In this document: piece by piece, positions 872-36,106 of the stretch
Numbering within the stretch: position 1 is the first letter of the stretch
Layout of the letters: each line of letters starts with the position of its first letter
NCBI RefSeq assembly: GCF_003790525.1
Contig: NZ_CP033632.1
Length of the DNA: 64,000 nucleotides
Reading direction: 5' to 3' (one strand)
Origin: Escherichia coli
Lineage (GTDB): Bacteria > Pseudomonadota > Gammaproteobacteria > Enterobacterales > Enterobacteriaceae
Translations under genes and position numbers: made by a program
The notes under the pieces: model-generated
Told to the model about the DNA's origin: nothing
Seen by the model: the letters and a program-made list of their open reading frames with translations, nothing else
The model's database searches: none

Positions 872-1691
872 GGCACTGTTGCAAATAGTCGGTGGTGATA
901 AACTTATCATCCCCTTTTGCTGATGGAGCTGCACATGAACCCATTCAAAGGCCGGCATTTTCAGCGTGACATCATTCTGTGGGCCGTACGCTGGTACTGC
1001 AAATACGGCATCAGTTACCGTGAGCTGCAGGAGATGCTGGCTGAACGCGGAGTGAATGTCGATCACTCCACGATTTACCGCTGGGTTCAGCGTTATGCGC
1101 CTGAAATGGAAAAACGGCTGCGCTGGTACTGGCGTAACCCTTCCGATCTTTGCCCGTGGCACATGGATGAAACCTACGTGAAGGTCAATGGCCGCTGGGC
1201 GTATCTGTACCGGGCCGTCGACAGCCGGGGCCGCACTGTCGATTTTTATCTCTCCTCCCGTCGTAACAGCAAAGCTGCATACCGGTTTCTGGGTAAAATC
1301 CTCAACAACGTGAAGAAGTGGCAGATCCCACGATTCATCAACACGGATAAAGCGCCCGCCTATGGTCGCGCGCTTGCTCTGCTCAAACGCGAAGGCCGGT
1401 GCCCGTCTGACGTTGAACACCGACAGATTAAGTACCGGAACAACGTGATTGAATGCGATCATGGCAAACTGAAACGGATAATCAACGCCACGCTGGGATT
1501 TAAATCCATGAAGACGGCTTACGCCACCATCAAAGGTATTGAGGTGATGCGTGCACTACGCAAAGGCCAGGCCTCAGCATTTTATTATGGTGATCCCCTG
1601 GGCGAAATGCGCCTGGTAAGCAGAGTTTTTGAAATGTAAGGCCTTTGAATAAGACAAAAGGCTGCCTCATCGCTAACTTTGCAACAGTGCC
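872..1691 (+). mobile_element. IS26: IS26 copy 1 (820 bp, 14-bp terminal IRs ggcactgttgcaaa)
   Basis: Terminal IRs at both ends; contains the Tnp26 ORF. Confidence 0.97.
917..1639 (+). CDS. tnp26: IS26 transposase Tnp26, Asn184 allele (canonical start MNPFKG at 935)
   Basis: ORF translation matches Tnp26; motif RIINATLGF. Confidence 0.95.
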   Translation: MLMELHMNPFKGRHFQRDIILWAVRWYCKYGISYRELQEMLAERGVNVDHSTIYRWVQRYAPEMEKRLRWYWRNPSDLCPWHMDETYVKVNGRWAYLYRAVDSRGRTVDFYLSSRRNSKAAYRFLGKILNNVKKWQIPRFINTDKAPAYGRALALLKREGRCPSDVEHRQIKYRNNVIECDHGKLKRIINATLGFKSMKTAYATIKGIEVMRALRKGQASAFYYGDPLGEMRLVSRVFEM

Positions 1692-3636: not shown

Positions 3637-4456
3637 GGCACTGTTGCAAAGTTAGCGATGAGGCAGCCTTTTGTCTTATTCAAAGGCCTTACATTTCAAA
3701 AACTCTGCTTACCAGGCGCATTTCGCCCAGGGGATCACCATAATAAAATGCTGAGGCCTGGCCTTTGCGTAGTGCACGCATCACCTCAATACCTTTGATG
3801 GTGGCGTAAGCCGTCTTCATGGATTTAAATCCCAGCGTGGCGTTGATTATCCGTTTCAGTTTGCCATGATCGCATTCAATCACGTTGTTCCGGTACTTAA
3901 TCTGTCGGTGTTCAACGTCAGACGGGCACCGGCCTTCGCGTTTGAGCAGAGCAAGCGCGCGACCATAGGCGGGCGCTTTATCCGTGTTGATGAATCGTGG
4001 GATCTGCCACTTCTTCACGTTGTTGAGGATTTTACCCAGAAACCGGTATGCAGCTTTGCTGTTACGACGGGAGGAGAGATAAAAATCGACAGTGCGGCCC
4101 CGGCTGTCGACGGCCCGGTACAGATACGCCCAGCGGCCATTGACCTTCACGTAGGTTTCATCCATGTGCCACGGGCAAAGATCGGAAGGGTTACGCCAGT
4201 ACCAGCGCAGCCGTTTTTCCATTTCAGGCGCATAACGCTGAACCCAGCGGTAAATCGTGGAGTGATCGACATTCACTCCGCGTTCAGCCAGCATCTCCTG
4301 CAGCTCACGGTAACTGATGCCGTATTTGCAGTACCAGCGTACGGCCCACAGAATGATGTCACGCTGAAAATGCCGGCCTTTGAATGGGTTCATGTGCAGC
4401 TCCATCAGCAAAAGGGGATGATAAGTTTATCACCACCGACTATTTGCAACAGTGCC
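3637..4456 (-). mobile_element. IS26: IS26 copy 2
   Basis: 820 bp with terminal IRs. Confidence 0.97.
3689..4411 (-). CDS. tnp26: IS26 transposase Tnp26, Asn184 allele
   Basis: ORF translation identical to copy 1. Confidence 0.95.
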   Translation of the reverse strand: MLMELHMNPFKGRHFQRDIILWAVRWYCKYGISYRELQEMLAERGVNVDHSTIYRWVQRYAPEMEKRLRWYWRNPSDLCPWHMDETYVKVNGRWAYLYRAVDSRGRTVDFYLSSRRNSKAAYRFLGKILNNVKKWQIPRFINTDKAPAYGRALALLKREGRCPSDVEHRQIKYRNNVIECDHGKLKRIINATLGFKSMKTAYATIKGIEVMRALRKGQASAFYYGDPLGEMRLVSRVFEM

Positions 4457-5499: not shown

Positions 5500-5751
5500 A
5501 TGAGCTATCAAATTCTGACAACCACAGCGGCCAGTATTACTGACCTGAAAAAAAATCCTATGGGAACCGTAGCTGAAGGTGAAGGGGACGCTGTTGCGAT
5601 CCTGAACCGAAACGAACCGGCGTTCTATTGCGTTCCACCAAAACTTTACGCCTACTATCGGGAACTCGCTGAAGATGCTGAGTTAAACGCTGTTGCTGAT
5701 GAGCGCATGAAAAACCCGGAAATTGTGAAGGTTAACCTGGATGACCTATGA
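5500..5751 (+). CDS. Type II antitoxin (StbD/RelB-like, Phd/YefM-type), 83 aa
   Basis: Small acidic protein overlapping a RelE/ParE-like toxin gene by 11 bp. Confidence 0.65.
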   Translation: MSYQILTTTAASITDLKKNPMGTVAEGEGDAVAILNRNEPAFYCVPPKLYAYYRELAEDAELNAVADERMKNPEIVKVNLDDL

Positions 5752-6022
5752 ACTGGCTTTTGACCGCAGAGCACTGAAGGAATGGCAGAAACTCGGCCAC
5801 ACCATCCGTGAACAATTCAAAAAGAAGCTGGCAGAACGGCTGGAAAATCCACGCGTACCCGCAGCCCGGTTACATGGTCATGCTGATCGCTATAAAATCA
5901 AACTTCGTGCATCTGGCTACAGACTTGTATATCAAGTCATTGATGAGAAAGTCGTTTTACTCGTTATTGCTGTTGGAAGAAGGGAAAGCAGCGAAGTTTA
6001 TCAGATTGCAGATATGCGCTGA
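5741..6022 (+). CDS. RelE/ParE-family toxin (StbE-like), 93 aa
   Basis: Translation ...RLHGHADRYKIKLRASGYRLVYQVIDEKVVLLVIAVGRRESSEVY is typical of RelE/ParE. Confidence 0.75.
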   Translation: MTYELAFDRRALKEWQKLGHTIREQFKKKLAERLENPRVPAARLHGHADRYKIKLRASGYRLVYQVIDEKVVLLVIAVGRRESSEVYQIADMR

Positions 6023-6208
6023 ACTGAAACCCGCCCCGTAATTCGCGGCTGCAGCCGCTCAGACGCGCAGATGCTACACACCGTCACGGCGTACCGTTCG
6101 CAAGCTTACGCGCTAACTGCGAAAGGCTAATTGCGTGTTGTTAGTCCGGTAATGGGCTTTGCAGGGAGGGGGGATGTCCCTGATCTTAATTAAGCTGGTT
6201 TGTTTCCG

Positions 6209-6350
6209 GGCACTGTTGCAAAGTTAGCGATGAGGCAGCCTTTTGTCTTATTCAAAGGCCTTACATTTCAAAAACTCTGCTTACCAGGCGCATTTCGCCT
6301 AGGGGATCACCATAATAAAATGCTGAGGCCTGGCCTTTGCGTAGTGCACG
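6209..6350 (-). mobile_element. IS26: IS26 stub (142 bp of the end distal to the tnp start)
   Basis: Matches 3637..3778 with one SNP (t at 6300); homology ends abruptly at 6350. Confidence 0.85.
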
Positions 6351-6518
6351 TATAGGAAATTGAAAAACCAGTCGATACCATTGTCCACGCCTTATGCCAC
6401 GTGAGCCTTTCTGCTTTTCCCACCACTCCGGTGGTTTCCCTCTCTGTATGGTCGATTTTTATACCGTAACAGGCTGTTTTTTATACTTTCACCGATTCCC
6501 GGGCACACTTAGCCTGTG

Positions 6519-7718
6519 TCAGGCCGGCATATACCTCAGTAGACTGATATCCCGCGCGTTTTTCTTCAGCCCTGATACATTCAGCCCCGCAATGGCCCGG
6601 CGGTATACCATCCGGCAGCCACACAGCACGCATTCGAACGGGTCACGACTCAGGAACTGTTTCACCATTTGTGCATAGCACACTTTCGCCACTGGTTCCG
6701 GTTTATCCATCCCCAGTGCACGGTACACCTGCGGCAGCTTCTCTCCACACACACGGTTGGCAAGGAACCCGAAGTACCTCACCATCTTAAAAAACTTCTC
6801 CGGGATGTGCTGTTTCAGCCTCGCGACCAGCTCACGCTGTGTCAGCGTTTCCGTCGCCGTTTCTCCCGTTTTGTGGTCCAGGTAACGGAAGCTCAGGCTT
6901 GCCCCTCCGTTGTAATGAGCCAGTCGGGAAGCCGCTATTGGTGGCTTCTTCAGATAACGACCCAGGTAGCGTGCCGTATTCCGCCCTCCGGCTGTCTTCT
7001 TCGACATGTACACATGCCAGTATTTTCCGCCGGATTTCAGCACCAGGCTTCTCCACTGTGATTCCGTCGTGATATGTGACAACGACTCCGGCATTGCCAT
7101 CCCCTCTGACCACGCTTTCAGAAGCAGCTGCCGCATATTCCACATCCACCGTGAACGCATCGCGTCTTTCAGGAAGCTCAGCTTTTTCCACTGACCATGC
7201 TTATTCAGACCTCCACAGGTTACAGACACATGTACATGCGGATGCCAGTTGAGACGACGGCCATACGTGTGGATGGCGCAGAAGATACCGGGTTCCAGCC
7301 CCCGTTTTCGGGCGGCATACAGCAGATTCTCCACCGCCAGACGGCACACGTCATTCAGCAGCCAGCGGTTGCTTTCGAACACCGGCCACAGCGTGTCCGG
7401 CAGGGTGAAGACCAGATGTACCCAGTCGCAGTCAGGAAGACGATTCAGCTGTGTTGCTGTCCACAGGTCTGTGGCCTTCTTTCCGCAGGACGGGCAGGCA
7501 CGGCTGCCGCATGAGTTGGTCAGGTACTTTACGTGCTGACAGTCCGGGTTATCACACCCGAACTCTTTTACACCCAGTATCCGTGTGCCGCAGGCCAGCA
7601 TTTTGGTGACGGCTTCAACCTCGATATCGCGCAGACCGCCCGCATCCAGGAAGGACGTCCAGCACTGGTTGGCTGTGAACAGACGTTTCAGAGGGCGGGG
7701 AGTAAAACCGGACAACAT
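6519..7718 (-). CDS. IS91-family (HUH rolling-circle) transposase, 399 aa
   Basis: N-terminal Cys cluster CDNPDCQHVKYLTNSCGSRACPSCGKK and IS91-like body, recalled not searched. Confidence 0.65.
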   Translation of the reverse strand: MLSGFTPRPLKRLFTANQCWTSFLDAGGLRDIEVEAVTKMLACGTRILGVKEFGCDNPDCQHVKYLTNSCGSRACPSCGKKATDLWTATQLNRLPDCDWVHLVFTLPDTLWPVFESNRWLLNDVCRLAVENLLYAARKRGLEPGIFCAIHTYGRRLNWHPHVHVSVTCGGLNKHGQWKKLSFLKDAMRSRWMWNMRQLLLKAWSEGMAMPESLSHITTESQWRSLVLKSGGKYWHVYMSKKTAGGRNTARYLGRYLKKPPIAASRLAHYNGGASLSFRYLDHKTGETATETLTQRELVARLKQHIPEKFFKMVRYFGFLANRVCGEKLPQVYRALGMDKPEPVAKVCYAQMVKQFLSRDPFECVLCGCRMVYRRAIAGLNVSGLKKNARDISLLRYMPA

Positions 7719-26680: not shown

Positions 26681-27108
26681 TCACGCGGGAAGCGTCATTT
26701 TATTCAGGGAGTCAACCAGCGCGCGACGGTGGTCGGCGCTCATGGTGATCCCTTCCGTCAACTCCGAAAGCCAGATGCCGTCAGCGGCGTAGCGCACCAG
26801 CGTGCCGGTTGGGCTGTTATCCAGCTCATCGCCCTGCGCCAGTTTCTCCAGCATCCAGTCGCGCCAGCATTTGCGCAGCACCGGTTCATCGGGCATTGCC
26901 AGCGACAAAACCATAAGCTGGCGGCTTTCATGGGTGTCCGTGAGATCCGCCAGATAGTTCAGATAGGCGCGGGTAAACCGGCCATAGCTCACGCCATCCT
27001 GTTGCATCAGCGCGGTAATCGCTTCTTCCATGATTGCCAGCAGACGCGCGAACAGGGCGAATATTAGCGCCTGCTTGTTCGGGAAATGGTGGATAAGGCC
27101 GCCTTTAC
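26681..27108 (-). pseudogene. TetR-family regulator C-terminal fragment (orf3), 5' end removed by IS26
   Basis: TetR-like ligand-domain sequence; frame runs into the IS26 end. Confidence 0.6.
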
Positions 27109-27928
27109 GGCACTGTTGCAAAGTTAGCGATGAGGCAGCCTTTTGTCTTATTCAAAGGCCTTACATTTCAAAAACTCTGCTTACCAGGCGCATTTCGCCC
27201 AGGGGATCACCATAATAAAATGCTGAGGCCTGGCCTTTGCGTAGTGCACGCATCACCTCAATACCTTTGATGGTGGCGTAAGCCGTCTTCATGGATTTAA
27301 ATCCCAGCGTGGCGCCGATTATCCGTTTCAGTTTGCCATGATCGCATTCAATCACGTTGTTCCGGTACTTAATCTGTCGGTGTTCAACGTCAGACGGGCA
27401 CCGGCCTTCGCGTTTGAGCAGAGCAAGCGCGCGACCATAGGCGGGCGCTTTATCCGTGTTGATGAATCGCGGGATCTGCCACTTCTTCACGTTGTTGAGG
27501 ATTTTACCCAGAAACCGGTATGCAGCTTTGCTGTTACGACGGGAGGAGAGATAAAAATCGACAGTGCGGCCCCGGCTGTCGACGGCCCGGTACAGATACG
27601 CCCAGCGGCCATTGACCTTCACGTAGGTTTCATCCATGTGCCACGGGCAAAGATCGGAAGGGTTACGCCAGTACCAGCGCAGCCGTTTTTCCATTTCAGG
27701 CGCATAACGCTGAACCCAGCGGTAAATCGTGGAGTGATCGACATTCACTCCGCGTTCAGCCAGCATCTCCTGCAGCTCACGGTAACTGATGCCGTATTTG
27801 CAGTACCAGCGTACGGCCCACAGAATGATGTCACGCTGAAAATGCCGGCCTTTGAATGGGTTCATGTGCAGCTCCATCAGCAAAAGGGGATGATAAGTTT
27901 ATCACCACCGACTATTTGCAACAGTGCC
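27109..27928 (-). mobile_element. IS26: IS26 copy 6 (Gly184 allele)
   Basis: 820 bp with terminal IRs. Confidence 0.97.
27161..27883 (-). CDS. tnp26: IS26 transposase Tnp26, Gly184 allele
   Basis: ORF translation. Confidence 0.95.
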   Translation of the reverse strand: MLMELHMNPFKGRHFQRDIILWAVRWYCKYGISYRELQEMLAERGVNVDHSTIYRWVQRYAPEMEKRLRWYWRNPSDLCPWHMDETYVKVNGRWAYLYRAVDSRGRTVDFYLSSRRNSKAAYRFLGKILNNVKKWQIPRFINTDKAPAYGRALALLKREGRCPSDVEHRQIKYRNNVIECDHGKLKRIIGATLGFKSMKTAYATIKGIEVMRALRKGQASAFYYGDPLGEMRLVSRVFEM

Positions 27929-28400
27929 GGCTATCGCTGCTGCTGAGGCTGCAATTGACGACTATAGAGGCGATGCTTGCGATGGATGGAGCGAAGAGGT
28001 CGAAAGCATTTGCTGGGGGGTAATTATTCAGCAGGCAACCAAGGTCGGTGAACGCAAGAAGAGGAAATGCGACAGAGTATCACCATGGATTGAAAGAGTT
28101 TGTGATTATGAGCTTCGACCTAATGTCGAAATCCCAGCCACCGATGCTTTCCTGTCTGAAATTCGTGCGGAAGCACGCAACGAGGGGATTAACTATACCG
28201 CCAGCCGTCTTGCTGCTGCGTTCAATCACGGATTTATCAATAAGTCTTTGCGTGAAGTTTTCGACGTTACACGCATGATTTTGTCAGCGAAAGAAGAGTT
28301 GGCTAATGAAGCGCATCCGATTGATGGCCTGTCTGGTGAATATGCGGAGAAATCCCTTGAAGAATGGGCGGAACAAATTCGCAAAGGAAGCAGCCAGTGA
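27929..28400 (+). CDS. Hypothetical phage protein; 5' end probably removed by IS26
   Basis: Frame opens at the IS26 boundary; shares the PATDAFL-E-RA segment with the gene at 28684. Confidence 0.5.
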
Positions 28401-28687
28401 ATATCGACACGACAATAACGATCGATACGCTCCTAAATACCGGTCTGGCACTTCTCGGTTGGCTTTACATCATGTCCCGCACATGGCGATGGCTGGGTTC
28501 CATTTTCCTAAAACAGTGGAAAAAACGGCGCAAACAGGAACTACGCCAGAAGGCATTAGAAGCGTTCTATGACGCATTTGAGCTTAGCCGCATTGAACCA
28601 GGTACAACAGCCAGGATAGCGACAAAAGGCGACCTGATGATAGTGATGTTCCGACAGGAGAGAGCAGAGAAAGGGGAATCAGCATGA
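28397..28687 (+). CDS. Small membrane protein (GTG start)
   Basis: GTGA overlap with the upstream stop; one hydrophobic segment. Confidence 0.45.
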   Translation: MNIDTTITIDTLLNTGLALLGWLYIMSRTWRWLGSIFLKQWKKRRKQELRQKALEAFYDAFELSRIEPGTTARIATKGDLMIVMFRQERAEKGESA

Positions 28688-29418
28688 AATTTTCCAAATT
28701 TTCTGAGTTGGTGAATCGTATTTTGTCCAACAACCACAGCCATCGTCGCGATATGGATGTAACAATCGTTGTTCATTCGCCTGGCAGCATTGGTTCAACA
28801 CCTTCAGTTGAGGTTCAGTCAATTCACGCTGGTTTTGATTGGGATTCCGGGAAAGTGCTTATTTTCCCATCACAGCCACTGACCACGCTAACACCAGAAC
28901 AGATTACTGATATCACTGATAGTGTGCGCAAAGGTCAGTCTTGGCACGCATATCAGGAATACAAGAAGCATCAAGAGCAGTTGGAAAAATTGTCGATTGA
29001 ACTGGATGCCGCAAAACAGCGCATTGCAGAGCTGGAGGGTAATCGCACGGCGCTGGCAGTGGAGAATGAGCTGGCTCGTAAGGCAGTTCAGGCATTCTGC
29101 GATGTTGTTGGCGACAACACCGAGGTTATCGCTGAGGTGGTTGGGCGAGATGGCGTTCTGGTTATTTTGGAGGCCATGAAGGCAACAGGAAATATGCCAG
29201 CCACCGATGCTTTCCTGGCTGAAGTGCGGGCGCAGGGCGTGGATGCTGCTATAGAAGCTGCAAAAAATCTGGTGGCCCAAGAATATGAGTATAAGGATTT
29301 CAAAGCGGCGCAGAGTGATTGCTGTATGCACCCTGGTTCAGACCTGGTAGGGAAGGTTGAAATGACTGAGTGGTTAGTTGACTTTGCTGCCCAGCTTCGC
29401 AAAGGAGGCAACCAGTGA
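28684..29418 (+). CDS. Hypothetical phage protein, coiled-coil, 244 aa
   Basis: ATGA overlap; paralogous C-terminal region to 27929..28400. Confidence 0.55.
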   Translation: MKFSKFSELVNRILSNNHSHRRDMDVTIVVHSPGSIGSTPSVEVQSIHAGFDWDSGKVLIFPSQPLTTLTPEQITDITDSVRKGQSWHAYQEYKKHQEQLEKLSIELDAAKQRIAELEGNRTALAVENELARKAVQAFCDVVGDNTEVIAEVVGRDGVLVILEAMKATGNMPATDAFLAEVRAQGVDAAIEAAKNLVAQEYEYKDFKAAQSDCCMHPGSDLVGKVEMTEWLVDFAAQLRKGGNQ

Positions 29419-29933
29419 GCGAAATTAATTACCAGGCACTGCGTGAGGCGGCGGAACGTGCAATTCCAGCAATGGAACGCCTGTTAATGTTGCCAGCTGA
29501 TGATGATTTGTTAAGTGAACAGGAACTTAAAGATTACGGTGTGGATATTGATGCGCTCAACGCCTTCAAATTTCTGGCCGGACCAGAAACCGTGCTGGCA
29601 CTACTGGATGAACGGGAAAGGAACCAGCAATACATCAAACGCCGCGACCAGGAGAACGAGGATATTGCGCTAACGGTAGGGAAGCTGCGCGTTGAGCTTG
29701 AAGCAGCAAAATCAAAACTCAACGAGCAGCGTGAATATTACGAGGGAGTAATCGCGGATGGAAGTAAGCGCATAGCAGAACTGGAGGAGCGGGAAATACT
29801 GCTCCCGGAACGTAGCAGCATGCTTCATCGAACAGATTTTCACGATGATTACCAAACGGTAATGGCATACAAAGTTTCTGAAGTCATCGCTGCAATCCGC
29901 GCCGCAGGCATTCGCATCAAAGGAGGTGAGTAA
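29415..29933 (+). CDS. Hypothetical coiled-coil protein, 172 aa
   Basis: GTGA overlap with the upstream gene. Confidence 0.55.
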   Translation: MSEINYQALREAAERAIPAMERLLMLPADDDLLSEQELKDYGVDIDALNAFKFLAGPETVLALLDERERNQQYIKRRDQENEDIALTVGKLRVELEAAKSKLNEQREYYEGVIADGSKRIAELEEREILLPERSSMLHRTDFHDDYQTVMAYKVSEVIAAIRAAGIRIKGGE

Positions 29934-30109
29934 TGCGTGTGGCATGTATCGGCTTGTTACCGTACCCGACTCGTTTTTGGGCTTCTGCGCTAATTGCAAA
30001 GCCGTATGTCCTGATGGCTGACAACATCATCCCGGCACCAAAGCGCCGCCATACCGGTATTGCAGCGGCACGACGAGCAGCAAAGAGACGCAGGAGAGCA
30101 AAGCGATGA
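29933..30109 (+). CDS. Small basic protein, 58 aa (below the ORF-track threshold)
   Basis: Manual translation [58 protein letters not shown]; overlaps neighbours at both ends. Confidence 0.4.
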   Translation: MRVACIGLLPYPTRFWASALIAKPYVLMADNIIPAPKRRHTGIAAARRAAKRRRRAKR

Positions 30110-30282
30110 AAAACCGTAAGGCAAAACGACTTTTTTTACAGCGACCTGTGCGTGTGGTGGAGCTGGTTATTAGCAACCATAAGATAGCGGTACTCCATCC
30201 ATTTGGTCAGGTGGCTTTTGCCGCAAAGCGTAAGCCTACTGCGTCACAGAACAGGCGGAAGAAAGGGTACGCAGTAAGATGA
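30106..30282 (+). CDS. Small basic protein, 58 aa, starting MKNRKAK
   Basis: Manual translation; ATGA overlap with the next gene; paralog of 30279..30467. Confidence 0.4.
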   Translation: MKNRKAKRLFLQRPVRVVELVISNHKIAVLHPFGQVAFAAKRKPTASQNRRKKGYAVR

Positions 30283-30467
30283 AAAACCGTAAAGCAAAGA
30301 TTCTGTTAGTTCGTAGAAACGCTCCTGGCGTCTGGCAGTGGGTGAGACTCAGCAACCGACGGATGGGGTTGATGAAATATTACGGGATGATGGATTGTGG
30401 TTTTTGCAAAAAGCCCAGCGCGGCGCAAAACCGCTGGAAAAACCATTTGCGCACTAAAGGAGAGTGA
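30279..30467 (+). CDS. Small basic protein, 62 aa, starting MKNRKAK
   Basis: ORF-track entry; tandem paralog of the preceding gene. Confidence 0.45.
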   Translation: MKNRKAKILLVRRNAPGVWQWVRLSNRRMGLMKYYGMMDCGFCKKPSAAQNRWKNHLRTKGE

Positions 30468-30468
30468 T

Positions 30469-30984
30469 ATGGCGTTAACACACCGCGAACTCTGTCAGAT
30501 TGCGTACAAGTTCCTTAAGCGCAACGGGTTCAAGGTTTGTTTTCATGACCGCTTTATAGCTGTAACCAGTACCGGAGAACAGCCAGATGCTATGGGGTTC
30601 AGAAATTCAGCATCATGCCTGATAGAGGCGAAGTGTTCTCGTGCTGATTTGTTGGCAGATAGAAAAAAGCGTTTTCGTAAAAATCCGTCTCTTGGAATGG
30701 GCGACTGGCGATTCTTTATTAGTGAGCCGGGAATTATTTCAATTGAGGATTTACCACCTGGCTGGGGATTACTTCACGTTGTTAACGGAAGAGTACGGAA
30801 AGTACATGGGTGGCCCAAGGGTAATTGCTGTTGGGGTAACCCTGAAGATAAACCTTTTATTGGGAATAAGCAGGTTGAATGCGATTACATGTTATCTGCA
30901 TTAAGGCGCATGGAGTTGAGAGGGCACCTTAATGAAATATATGACGGTGTAATTGTTAATAAGAAAGAAGGAAACGCGGCATGA
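30469..30984 (+). CDS. PD-(D/E)xK-type nuclease-like protein (about 171 aa from MALTHRELCQ)
   Basis: Motif ...EQPDAMGF...CLIEAKCS... (PD, then E-x-K); AAGGAG Shine-Dalgarno 9 bp upstream. Confidence 0.5.
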   Translation: MALTHRELCQIAYKFLKRNGFKVCFHDRFIAVTSTGEQPDAMGFRNSASCLIEAKCSRADLLADRKKRFRKNPSLGMGDWRFFISEPGIISIEDLPPGWGLLHVVNGRVRKVHGWPKGNCCWGNPEDKPFIGNKQVECDYMLSALRRMELRGHLNEIYDGVIVNKKEGNAA

Positions 30985-31838
30985 TCACTATTACCAAAGA
31001 GCGACTGCTGACAATCAAGCAGTGGCGCGAAACATACGGACCTGATAGCAACGTTGTACTGCCAGCAGAAGAAGCGGAAGAACTGGCGCGTATCGTGCTG
31101 GCATCGCTGGAAGCAGAGCCTGTTCTGTATCAGTCCTGCACTCGCCCCACCTGGAATAGCGGTGTTCCGTGGACGGAATGGAAAGAACGTAGTCGTGAGT
31201 GCTACGAAGACGATTTGCGTTTTACAGACACGCCTGACCATGCCGGTTGGATATACAAATGTCGAAAACTATATACCACTCCGCCAGCGCCGATAGCGTT
31301 AGAGGCCATTGAAAACGCAATTGAATACATTCGTAGTATCGCTTTTCACATCGATGAAGACGATTACCACGGCAAACATATTGCGTATTTCATGCGACAA
31401 GCATTGGCCTGGCTGGAAGGGCATTCATGCAGCGACGACAGACTGGGTAAAGCCGACAATCAACCAGTACGCGGCAACCAGGCTGCCGAATCCAATCGCG
31501 GTAATGAGTGGACCGGCAATCCTGATATTGATAACGCAATCATCATGCTCGACCGCATAGATACGGCGGAAAGTTACGATGATGACCGTATTGAGGCTGT
31601 TAAGGCTGTTTTGCGTAGACTGGCAGGCAACTCTCCGGTAACTCCGGATGGTTGGATAAGCTGTAGTGAGCGAATGCCCCCTCAAGATGATTGGATTTTA
31701 ATTTATTCAAAGCACGGCGAGTATATGGCAGGACAGGTACAAGGGGAATACGTGGAGTTGAGCGACGGCACTTTATCGTGGTTAGGGAACGCCTTGTTCT
31801 GGATGCCGCTACCAGAACCGCCGCAGGAGGCGAAATGA
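30981..31838 (+). CDS. Phage protein with a DUF551-like C-terminal domain, 285 aa
   Basis: C-terminal GWISCSERMPPQDDWILIY...LSWLGNALFWMPLPEPP resembles DUF551. Confidence 0.5.
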   Translation: MITITKERLLTIKQWRETYGPDSNVVLPAEEAEELARIVLASLEAEPVLYQSCTRPTWNSGVPWTEWKERSRECYEDDLRFTDTPDHAGWIYKCRKLYTTPPAPIALEAIENAIEYIRSIAFHIDEDDYHGKHIAYFMRQALAWLEGHSCSDDRLGKADNQPVRGNQAAESNRGNEWTGNPDIDNAIIMLDRIDTAESYDDDRIEAVKAVLRRLAGNSPVTPDGWISCSERMPPQDDWILIYSKHGEYMAGQVQGEYVELSDGTLSWLGNALFWMPLPEPPQEAK

Positions 31839-32095
31839 TGGATGTAAAAGAGAAGGTTTTGCAGGTGATGCGTTCCCGGGCTGCCCTGCAAGATAAAGCT
31901 CTCGGCGGGGAATATCCATTCAGGATGGCAACCTGGAATCTGCGGTTGGCAATGGAGAAGGAATTTCCTGATGAAGAATGGCGTTCGGCAGATTTGCGCA
32001 AAATTCTTATGGAGCTGGCTAAAGACGGAACAGTATCCAAAGATACCCATGCCAGCCGGATTGGTCAGGCGGTATGGAGACTGGAGGTGAGGTAA
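31835..32095 (+). CDS. Hypothetical protein, 86 aa
   Basis: ATGA coupling to the upstream gene. Confidence 0.45.
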   Translation: MMDVKEKVLQVMRSRAALQDKALGGEYPFRMATWNLRLAMEKEFPDEEWRSADLRKILMELAKDGTVSKDTHASRIGQAVWRLEVR

Positions 32096-34302: not shown

Positions 34303-35164
34303 TCAGGTGGTTCCTTGTCAAATGTAAAGGTGCACTTGCTCACGTTGACGTAGAAACCCAACCCCTATATAGTTGGATTCGGTGAATGAAAGTCGTTAAC
34401 GTGAGCTTACGGCACATGTTTTCGGAAAAACATCAGGGAACGGCTAATTCCTTGATGCGGGTGGGGTCTGTAATGCAGACCCTATCTATTAACGTCATGA
34501 TTGCATCTCAAATTTTCTCCTTATCTTCAATTAATCTACATTCATTTCATCTGTTAGCCACCACAATATGTAGAAAATGGCCCTCTTGCAAGTGCATAAC
34601 TTTGTGGATAACTCAGGAAGGAAAAAGTGGCTTTCGCGCACCTTCGGTCAGACAAGGTGTCCGGGAAAGTCAACGCAAAGAAAAAAATTGTTAAAAATAA
34701 CGTTTGTTGGAATTGTATATTTTTATCCCCTTCAATGGTTAGCATTCTATTAACATCTTTTTTTAGAGACAGAAAAACATATCGTAACAACATATATACA
34801 GTGTTAAGCGGCGAGTATTATCCTGCGGTGGGAATTCTGGGCGCTGTTAGATTCGACTTTCTCAGCAGGATTACATCGTCAACTTGCGACGTTGCCGTAT
34901 GACTTTCGTGTAATAGGTGACAATGATGCGGCTAGTGAGTTACTTGTGAAGTTTTTCGGAAAAGGTTTTGTGGCCTCGGATCTTGATGAGCTACAGCAAC
35001 ATGAAGTGTCTAATTTGATTTTTAGCCATAGCCAATAAGCCTCCCTCCTCCATCAAGGCCACAATTTGTGACCTTAAACAATTTGTTTTCTGCTTTTTCT
35101 TATTTGAGAAAATAACGTTGTTGACAGCTAATAGGCTCGTTGTTGTTATACATGCCTGTATAGA

Positions 35165-35521
35165 TTATGACCGTAAATTATTAGCGGATTTTAAGCCATA
35201 TTCACCGTTGTAGAAATTACTCATGTTCCATTCATTAGGAAGTTCTTTTCTGTCCAATGTATAGTGGCGCACGATATAACGATCTTCATCTTCTTCGATG
35301 GACAGGCGGACATAGCCAATGTGAATCACCGATACGGGCGGTGTTCGTATTGCATAGATGTCGCGGAGATATACCGGCAGCTCGACAAATGCATCAGGTG
35401 CATCTGTGATGCTCGTTTTTTCACAGTATTCATATAACGCATCGTTGATATCGTTAAGAGATTCATGATCGTATATTTCCAGGTAATTACCGCGATCGCG
35501 ATGGTACTCGATTTTAGCCAT
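35165..35521 (-). CDS. Hypothetical protein, 118 aa (second gene of a two-gene operon)
   Basis: Start codon immediately follows the stop of the upstream gene. Confidence 0.55.
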   Translation of the reverse strand: MAKIEYHRDRGNYLEIYDHESLNDINDALYEYCEKTSITDAPDAFVELPVYLRDIYAIRTPPVSVIHIGYVRLSIEEDEDRYIVRHYTLDRKELPNEWNMSNFYNGEYGLKSANNLRS

Positions 35522-36106
35522 TCAAAATCCCCTGTTATCGTTTTGCATTTCTCTAATCCGGTTCAGAACTACTTCATGCTGGACTTGGATAGCGGCTTTT
35601 TCGTTTTCAAGCCGGGCAATAGACATCTCTAATTCTTTGCTGTACCAGGCGAGCTGGGCCAGGTTCATCCGGTTGTGGTCGAGAGTTGGAGACACTTCGA
35701 CGCGATCCCTTTCTTCCTGCTTTAATGAGAAGAGATTTATCTCATCCCTTGAGGAAAATTCAGCAACAATTTCTTGTTGATGATCCGGTCGCTGCGGCAT
35801 CCTCGCCAGTATAAATGGCGGTTCTTTTGAAAACATGAATGTCGGTTCAGACCGTGTTTTTACCCAGCTTGCCTGCTGTCTTTCGGCAAGTTCACAGGCT
35901 TCATCATAGTTATCTGCCAAACAAAGCACGGATGGACGGTCCCACGCCCCACCATTCAGACAATAAACTACAATTTTCCCGTCAGGTTGTGTAACCCCAT
36001 ATGGATGGTCCCACCAGGCGTCCAGCTGAGCTTTAGAGCGTTTCTCGTTAGGAGTGCAGTCAAAATTTTTGGGCAATACAGGATCGAGAGGAATGCGGGC
36101 AGGCAT
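35522..36106 (-). CDS. Hypothetical protein, 194 aa, C-terminal coiled coil (first gene of the operon)
   Basis: AAGGA Shine-Dalgarno 9 bp upstream; divergent from humD. Confidence 0.55.
   Translation of the reverse strand: MPARIPLDPVLPKNFDCTPNEKRSKAQLDAWWDHPYGVTQPDGKIVVYCLNGGAWDRPSVLCLADNYDEACELAERQQASWVKTRSEPTFMFSKEPPFILARMPQRPDHQQEIVAEFSSRDEINLFSLKQEERDRVEVSPTLDHNRMNLAQLAWYSKELEMSIARLENEKAAIQVQHEVVLNRIREMQNDNRGF

Follow-up and report, generated by a model that had tools for sequence, protein, structure and literature searches.

The locus described here spans positions 27929 to 29933 of a 64,000-nucleotide (nt) stretch of Escherichia coli DNA (contig NZ_CP033632.1, assembly GCF_003790525.1), referred to as the window, and it opens a tightly packed run of plus-strand, Ead/Ea22-like phage genes. 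The run comprises a truncated gene, g1, and at least nine further genes up to position ~32095, which meet at GTGA, ATGA, TAATG or TGAnATG junctions. The g1 remnant (27929..28400) is the 3' part of an ead/Ea22-like gene, recognized by alignment to plasmid pSBF22b (NZ_CP067237), and its product ends in ..EQIRKGSSQ. The next gene, g2 (28397..28687), starts with GTG and encodes a DUF4752 protein of 96 amino acids (aa), as annotated in pSBF22b and as given by its match to PF15944 (E = 1.7e-42, 143.8 bits, gathering cut-off 27). It is followed by g3 (28684..29418), which codes for a 244-aa mosaic protein of the Ea22 superfamily with the tail ..AAQLRKGGNQ, and by g4 (29415..29933), which codes for an Ead/Ea22-like protein of 172 aa (PF13935, E = 6e-38, 131 bits, cut-off 27) whose tail, ..AGIRIKGGE, is encoded by AAAGGAGGTGAGTAATG.

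The three Ea22-like products are related in a piecemeal fashion. All of them match phrog_368 (g3 with E = 1.9e-75), and g3 is laid out as an N-terminal module of its own, a coiled coil, a junction with the residues PATDAFL and a C-terminal-domain cassette. Relatives of g3 are 82-83% identical over the full query, and some of them carry PF13935. Over its C-terminal 88 residues g1 is 28% identical to the end of g3, while the N-terminus of the full-length g1 of pSBF22b, which scores 70.2 bits against PF13935 and thus above the gathering score, aligns with that of g4. PF13935 was matched neither by the g1 remnant (156 aa), which has lost its N-domain and gave no Pfam hit at all, nor by g3 (244 aa). 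The proteins g1, g3 and g4 are paralogous mosaics within one superfamily. An AlphaFold2 (AF2) model of g3 places strands at residues 24-62, a helix at 71-168, a break, and helices at 173-239, with a mean pLDDT (the confidence score of the model) of only 52. Sequence searches of the PDB with full-length g1, g3 and g4 returned only coiled-coil noise, NCBIfam gave a family for none of nine proteins of the block, and the PHROGs search of the block proteins gave only families of 'unknown function'.

Downstream of g4 the chain continues on the same strand with g5 (29933..30109), a conserved small open reading frame (ORF) of 58 aa (MRVACIGLLPY..; phrog_13831, E = 1.1e-41), which in the viral loci listed in the survey described below always follows the KGGE/TAATG variant of the junction. 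Two small paralogues in tandem, joined by ATGA overlaps (30106-30467), come next: g6 (30106-30282; 58 aa) and g7 (30279-30467; 62 aa), both beginning MKNRKAK.. and belonging to phrog_1380, the latter with the tail ..LRTKGE. The last members are g8 (30469-30984), g9 (30981-31838) and g10 (31835-32095), which end in ..KKEGNAA, ..PPQEAK and ..RLEVR and are followed by ATGA, ATGA and TAATG junctions, respectively.

At all ten junctions of the chain, the last codons of one gene hold the Shine-Dalgarno (SD) site of the next, and the overlap, or a gap of at most 1 nt, together with an SD site inside the upstream ORF, corresponds to the layout of a coupled operon. The g1/g2 junction, TTCGCAAAGGAAGCAGCCAGTGA (28378..28400), supplies the SD site of g2 with a GTGA overlap at 28397-28400 and an anti-SD pairing energy of -5.6 kcal/mol; the g3/g4 junction, TTCGCAAAGGAGGCAACCAGTGA (29396..29418), does the same for g4 with a GTGA overlap at 29415-29418 and -11.6 kcal/mol. 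The tail of g2, ..EKGESA, carries AAAGGGGAA and an ATGA overlap with g3, and at the g4/g5 junction the genes share a single nucleotide (TAATG, 29933), the anti-SD duplex reaching -12.9 kcal/mol. Over the ten starts the pairing averages -8.5 kcal/mol, versus -2.9 kcal/mol in background windows, and 7 of the 10 reach -6 kcal/mol or lower, a level attained by 13% of background windows. The same stretches of DNA, read in frame, give the tails ..RKGSSQ, ..EKGESA, ..RKGGNQ, ..IKGGE and ..TKGE. The layout suggests that translation may be coupled; nothing points, however, to initiation downstream that depends on translation upstream.

A first-pass annotation of the locus had already read such tails as by-products of the downstream ribosome-binding site and of the stop/start overlap, and both the anti-SD pairing and the comparison of gene ends given below agree with it. 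Several of its particulars need to be amended. The three tails it described are real, yet their genes are not successive, as the DUF4752 gene (28397-28687) separates the first two. The AAGGAGG site which it placed in every 3' end is found in g3 and g4, whereas g1 has AAAGGAAG and g2 has AAAGGGGAA; similarly, g1 and g3 end in GTGA, but g4 ends in TAATG. The likeness of the tails does reflect the ribosome-binding site, but the 3' ends of g1 and g3 are also homologous (28378-28400 versus 29396-29418, 23 nt at 91%). Finally, the coupled run, which it had closed at 29933, is real and extends to ~32095.

A second shared sequence lies inside the genes. The repeat search aligned 28131-28169 in g1 with 29194-29232 in g3 over 39 nt at 87% identity, including 21 nt of exact match, CCAGCCACCGATGCTTTCCTG; the chance expectation of shared 21-mers in 2172 nt is ~5e-7. 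The two copies, ..IPATDAFLSEIRA.. and ..MPATDAFLAEVRA.., both on the plus strand, are direct, 1063 bp apart and in frame, and both encode PATDAFL. The first stands at the start of the C-terminal-domain cassette of g1, and the second is a mosaic breakpoint in many phages. A search for the motif TDAFL over viral loci yielded 51 distinct contexts, the flanks of which cluster into 13 upstream and 13 downstream classes that occur in 34 combinations and form 13 four-gamete quartets. Where two contexts have different flanks upstream as well as downstream, their DNA is still 63-92% identical between -12 and +42 nt around the motif, versus ~27% in the flanks, so that an island of ~55 nt, encoding (E)TPATDAFLAEVRAQGV, stands at the boundary between coiled coil and C-terminal domain. 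Conserved DNA is thus found between unrelated flanks that reassort in all four combinations, as is characteristic of a mosaic boundary. Alignment ends tell the same: 23 BLAST alignments between the window and viral loci start within 29196-29207, and megablast against GenBank phages gives pieces that begin at both copies (query position 1269 being 29197) and at gene junctions. The g3-type C-terminal domain is mounted on several distinct N-terminal architectures, and a single upstream type is paired with up to five different C-terminal domains. The segment, which had been taken for a duplication, is therefore a genuine similarity, but it is a junction common to the whole family, where N-terminal/coiled-coil modules are combined anew with C-terminal-domain modules, rather than the product of a duplication event in this lineage. 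The C-terminal domains of g1 and g3 are distant paralogues (28%), held as cassettes between the PATDAFL island and the ..RKGxxQ/GTGA end.

Comparable islands occur elsewhere in these genes. A weaker third island in the coiled coil, ..RIAELEGNRTALAVEN.. (29020..29068, plus strand; ..AELE.N..ALA.EN..), is 85.7% identical over 49 nt to positions 5876-5924 of the pSBF22b locus and links g3 with the 5' portion that g1 has lost; ALAAENAGxK is kept across otherwise different N-terminal modules. At the gene ends, the flanks of the RKGGNQ junction fall into 16 x 12 classes (32 combinations) and those of the Ea22 tail junction (GIRIKGE) into 24 x 20 classes (48 combinations). The four-gamete quartets at the three junctions number 13, 18 and 8.

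The conservation of the PATDAFL island may be explained in another way, namely by a structural constraint on the protein alone at a domain boundary, with illegitimate recombination occurring anywhere and selection afterwards retaining intact domains, as in the model of Hendrix; both this model and that of homology-targeted exchange are discussed in PMC3233612. We regard this as a possible explanation, though clearly the less probable one. The motif is nearly invariant in its amino acids, the low-confidence AF2 model of g3 has its helix break (residues 169-172) just ahead of it, and some synonymous sites in the island do vary (TTC 39/TTT 12; GAT 43/GAC 8), which indicates that protein-level constraint contributes. 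Constraint on the protein accounts less well for the dominance of a single codon at most positions of the island (GCT in 49/51 contexts, CCA in 42/51, CTG in 45/51 and ACC in 44/51) while the flanks are at random identity, or for the fact that across 21 nt not one of the seven synonymous sites differs between the copies in g1 and g3, when the domains that follow are only 28% identical. Nor does it readily explain the clustering of 23 alignment starts within a few nucleotides of the island. A literature search for PATDAFL found nothing, and a resemblance to the Chi site was not seen on inspection of the island.

The gene-end junctions bear on a published observation. According to Dydecka et al. 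(2020), K/R-G-E is the ending common to all Ea22 proteins, a tail "of unknown significance", and neither a later review nor the nuclear magnetic resonance (NMR) paper offers an explanation for it. Gene ends were surveyed in 80 viral loci of IMG/VR, fetched via the Ea22 N-domain. Nearly all of their Ea22-like genes end in ..AAAGGAGAGTGA(T/G)ATG or GGCATTCGCATCAAAGGAGAGTGA(T/G)ATG, with the next ATG one base past the stop; 12 or more unrelated genes stand downstream of this junction. In the Ea22 gene of phage 933W, the tail ..IKRGE derives from AAAAGAGGTGAGTAATG and is followed by an ORF of 51 aa that lacks RefSeq annotation. The variants found among the 80 loci, AACGGAGGTGAGTAGTG (NGGE), GGAGAC/T (KGD), AAGGGGAAT (KGN) and GCAGGAGAA (AGE), exchange the lysine or the glutamate and keep the GGAG or purine core. 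Together with the other features of these gene ends, this supports the view that the K/R-G-E tail is the ribosome-binding site of the next gene read in frame, and thus a by-product arising at the level of RNA rather than a protein motif.

That the K/R-G-E/G tail is instead a functional motif of the protein, such as a binding or degradation signal, with an incidental overlap of the ribosome-binding site, seems improbable. In favor of such a role, the tail is conserved over Ea22 proteins with differing C-terminal domains, and it is kept in lambda. In lambda (NC_001416, locus 1040-1060, minus strand), the gene-end junction ..ATCAAAGGAGAGTGA is retained with no start codon after it: ea22 still ends in ..AAAGGAGAGTGA, followed by GATCGG.., and ea8.5 is 190 nt away across DNA that is apparently non-coding. 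We read this end as a relic junction, the scar of a vanished downstream gene; it does mean that K/R-G-E can persist in an uncoupled gene, which leaves some room for a role of the protein sequence. The remaining evidence speaks for the ribosome-binding site. A protein motif would hardly lose its lysine or glutamate in NGGE, KGD and KGN while GGAG is retained, and the glycine codon of the tail is GGA or GGG without exception. Every sampled locus that bears the tail has a start codon 0-5 nt from the stop. The non-homologous proteins g7 (..LRTKGE) and DUF4752 (..EKGESA) share the tail, and g7, which is not Ea22-like, has the same AAAGGAGAGTGAtATG junction at its end. Over 611 non-redundant gene ends of all kinds, moreover, [KR]G occurs within the last 8 residues in 31% of genes coupled to an abutting start versus 5% of uncoupled genes, and an SD-like 4-mer is present at 74% of coupled and 27% of uncoupled ends.

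The 5' boundary of the block is formed by an insertion sequence. The alignment to pSBF22b opens exactly at 27929, which corresponds to position 6001 of the locus taken from that plasmid (99.55% identity) and falls inside an 867-bp ead/Ea22-like gene annotated at 5606-6472. In g1, 395 nt (131 codons) have been removed by IS26, including the Ead_Ea22 N-domain and the coiled coil, and 472 of 867 nt, or residues 132-288 of 288, are retained. The IS26 copy concerned (27109..27928, minus strand; transposase ORF of 240 aa at 27161-27883) is the last of six complete copies; its 14-bp inverted repeats lie at 27109 and at 27915-27928, and the right one abuts the g1 remnant. The first-pass annotation was thus correct in having the first gene cut by IS26, the inverted repeat ending at 27928 and homology to pSBF22b resuming at 27929, and the alignment to P1-family genomes which it proposed located the missing upstream part in pSBF22b. 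The block is common: at least 20 P1-like plasmids contain 80% or more of its length, with identities of 98.0-99.2%. Its first gene is incomplete here, and the shared segment is present in relatives. A recent plasmid-specific duplication or gene conversion, or an assembly artefact, might be suspected from two direct copies of this segment that lie 1063 bp apart and agree exactly over 21 nt, but can be dismissed, because independently assembled relatives hold both copies at the same places (6206-6241 and 7266-7304 in the pSBF22b locus), the motif recurs in 51 distinct viral contexts and the similarity is limited to 39 nt within diverged surroundings.

The 6 kb that precede the g1 homology in pSBF22b leave no trace anywhere in the window. 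In pSBF22b they are colinear with reference P1 (NC_005856) over ppp, pap and the beginning of pmgT, and they contain Op88, the C1 operator, along with the PpmgT promoters of the NC_005856 annotation. The Ea22-like block thus occupies the slot of the pmgT-pmgV operon of P1, and its promoter is probably the C1-controlled PpmgT with Op88, which is absent from this window. Scanning 27700-31200 for promoters gave no sigma-70 site on the plus strand. Inspection by eye also led to the rejection, as unsupported, of a hybrid promoter formed with IS26: the element ends in an outward TTGCAA, but a usable -10 hexamer is missing at the required distance of 16-18 nt. The genes after IS26 would now be poorly transcribed. 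Further downstream, the P1 hot gene, a homologue of the DNA polymerase III theta subunit (locus L084, 16578-16810), has no blastn match in window 34710-35539; the pmgU-upfO and lxr-humD segments around hot do match the window, and pSBF22b carries hot.

Colinear homology to P1, P7 and SJ46, at 95-99% identity across window 34000-58000 (pacA, pacB, cre and others), indicates a backbone of the P1 family (a Punavirus-like phage-plasmid), as had been proposed on first reading. The resistance region that precedes the block (872-27928) contains six complete IS26 and one partial IS26, the lone end of which is at 6209, so that all seven lie within 27 kb. A fragment of a TetR-family gene (26681-27121, minus strand) reads into the last IS26; with this fragment as its left flank, the element connects unrelated segments. 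The 8-mers flanking this copy, gcctttac and ggctatcg, differ, and the 8-bp target-site duplication of a simple insertion is therefore absent. Positions 1-871 of the window match the dqlB region (DinQ-like toxin) of other plasmids at 100% identity and have no phage match, and are thus not of P1 origin; an IS1 end (~640-871), itself cut by IS26, follows the dqlB region. Given this non-P1 segment and the absent target-site duplication, IS26 seems to have mediated the fusion of a P1-like phage-plasmid with another plasmid; the P1 part missing from the window may then sit elsewhere on the same replicon. The statement that the promoter and the upstream genes are lost is thus borne out as far as the window goes, where they are absent, but is too strong in view of the possible fusion. 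The exact IS26/Ea22 junction is absent from PLSDB.

Taken together, these data make it likely that the locus is a cut accessory operon whose protein tails derive from ribosome-binding sites and whose islands act as recombination junctions. On this reading, what remains is the 3' portion of a lambdoid-derived accessory early operon (Ead/Ea22-like genes, DUF4752 and small ORFs), located where a P1-family phage-plasmid has pmgT-pmgV and severed at its 5' end by the IS26 array. The genes are so densely packed that each SD site lies within the final 4-7 codons of the gene before it, the stop of which overlaps or abuts the next start, and the purine-rich site, read in frame, yields the Lys/Arg-Gly-Glu/Gly tails. 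The gene-end sequences and the ~55-nt island form islands of high-identity DNA amid unrelated sequence, which most likely provide phages, and likewise tandem paralogues, with short stretches of homology at which to recombine; exchange would start within the islands themselves. Some observations weigh against this reading. Besides the synonymous variation in the PATDAFL island and the uncoupled tail of lambda ea22, RNA folding at eight junctions is ordinary (z from -0.9 to +1.2), with no SD-masking structure detected. The p-value of 8e-18 for the association of [KR]G with coupling overstates independence, since the loci are interrelated and the gene calls crude, and part of the identity at the gene-end junctions exists by construction, as these contexts were chosen by the junction pattern.

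The elements of this arrangement have known counterparts. The g4 protein resembles lambda Ea22 in its N-terminus (MSEIN.QALREAAE..), coiled coil and ..AGIRIKG(G)E tail, and it follows the published three-part plan of Ea22 (N-region, coiled coil, variable C-terminal domain) with a K/R-G-E end (PMC7093339, PMC10834534); the lambda and Stx phage proteins have been reported to be pro-lysogenic (PMC7093339, PMC10834534). In lambda and Stx phages, however, ea22 lies between exo and xis of a lambdoid prophage, whereas here three paralogues stand in series on a P1-type phage-plasmid, g1 being truncated, and their C-terminal domains are unlike the solved domain of lambda Ea22 (no sequence match in the PDB). 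Boundary or 'linker' sequences at lambdoid module junctions have been described (Susskind and Botstein 1978; Clark et al. 2001, summarized in PMC3233612), and the islands share with them short conserved DNA at gene or domain boundaries between unrelated, reassorting flanks. They differ in that the PATDAFL island lies in frame within a gene, that the gene-end islands double as ribosome-binding site and stop/start overlap, and that exchange crosses unrelated phage types (P1-like, lambdoid and phiV10-like). Coupling by 4-nt stop/start overlaps, with the SD site inside the upstream gene and a bias in its C-terminal codons, is likewise known (PMC7246954). The present ATGA/GTGA overlaps with UGA stops, and ribosome-binding sites that shape the last codons of the upstream coding sequence, resemble it, while the chain is unusually long and uniform (at least 10 genes) and its by-product tail is so well conserved within one family that it has been printed as a protein motif. 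With respect to the pmgT-pmgV/upfM-upfO region of P1, pSBF22b is colinear from ppp to the start of pmgT and homology of the window to P1 resumes at pmgU-upfO and lxr-humD, yet reference P1 lacks the Ea22-like block, and in the window the IS26 resistance array replaces its promoter-proximal part.

Translational coupling and mosaic boundary sequences are thus well-known kinds of feature, and what is new is modest: an explanation for the published K/R-G-E tail and a clean intragenic junction island. The former cautions against taking such tails for protein motifs, and boundary sequences as unusually clean as these bear on the question of whether mosaic joints are targeted by homology or are random and then selected. 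Lambdoid accessory genes of the exo-xis type also circulate among P1-like phage-plasmids. A more speculative idea, which we hold only tentatively and consider rather unlikely, is that Ea22-like proteins constitute a cassette system, in which the PATDAFL linker and the gene-end/ribosome-binding-site junction bracket a swappable C-terminal 'effector' mounted on an oligomerizing coiled coil. Tandem paralogues and homologies of ~25-55 nt might then let phages swap host-targeting domains rapidly across the P1-like, lambdoid and phiV10-like types. If true, this would amount to a recombination-driven diversification of early lysis/lysogeny or anti-host functions, with a logic like that of tail-fibre or immunity-module swapping.

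Several of the small ORFs of the block are without annotation in reference phages such as 933W (NC_000924). There, RefSeq annotation is absent from 3763-4103 of the 933W locus, between ST933Wp08 and the Ea22-like ST933Wp09, a region that holds two conserved small ORFs, the 51-aa MRVACIG.. and an MKNRKAK.. ORF ending in ..TKGE. The annotated GTG start of ST933Wp08 is probably wrong, and the ATG just past a AAAGGAGAGTGAtATG-type junction (MAIAASYTMHLYC..) is to be preferred.

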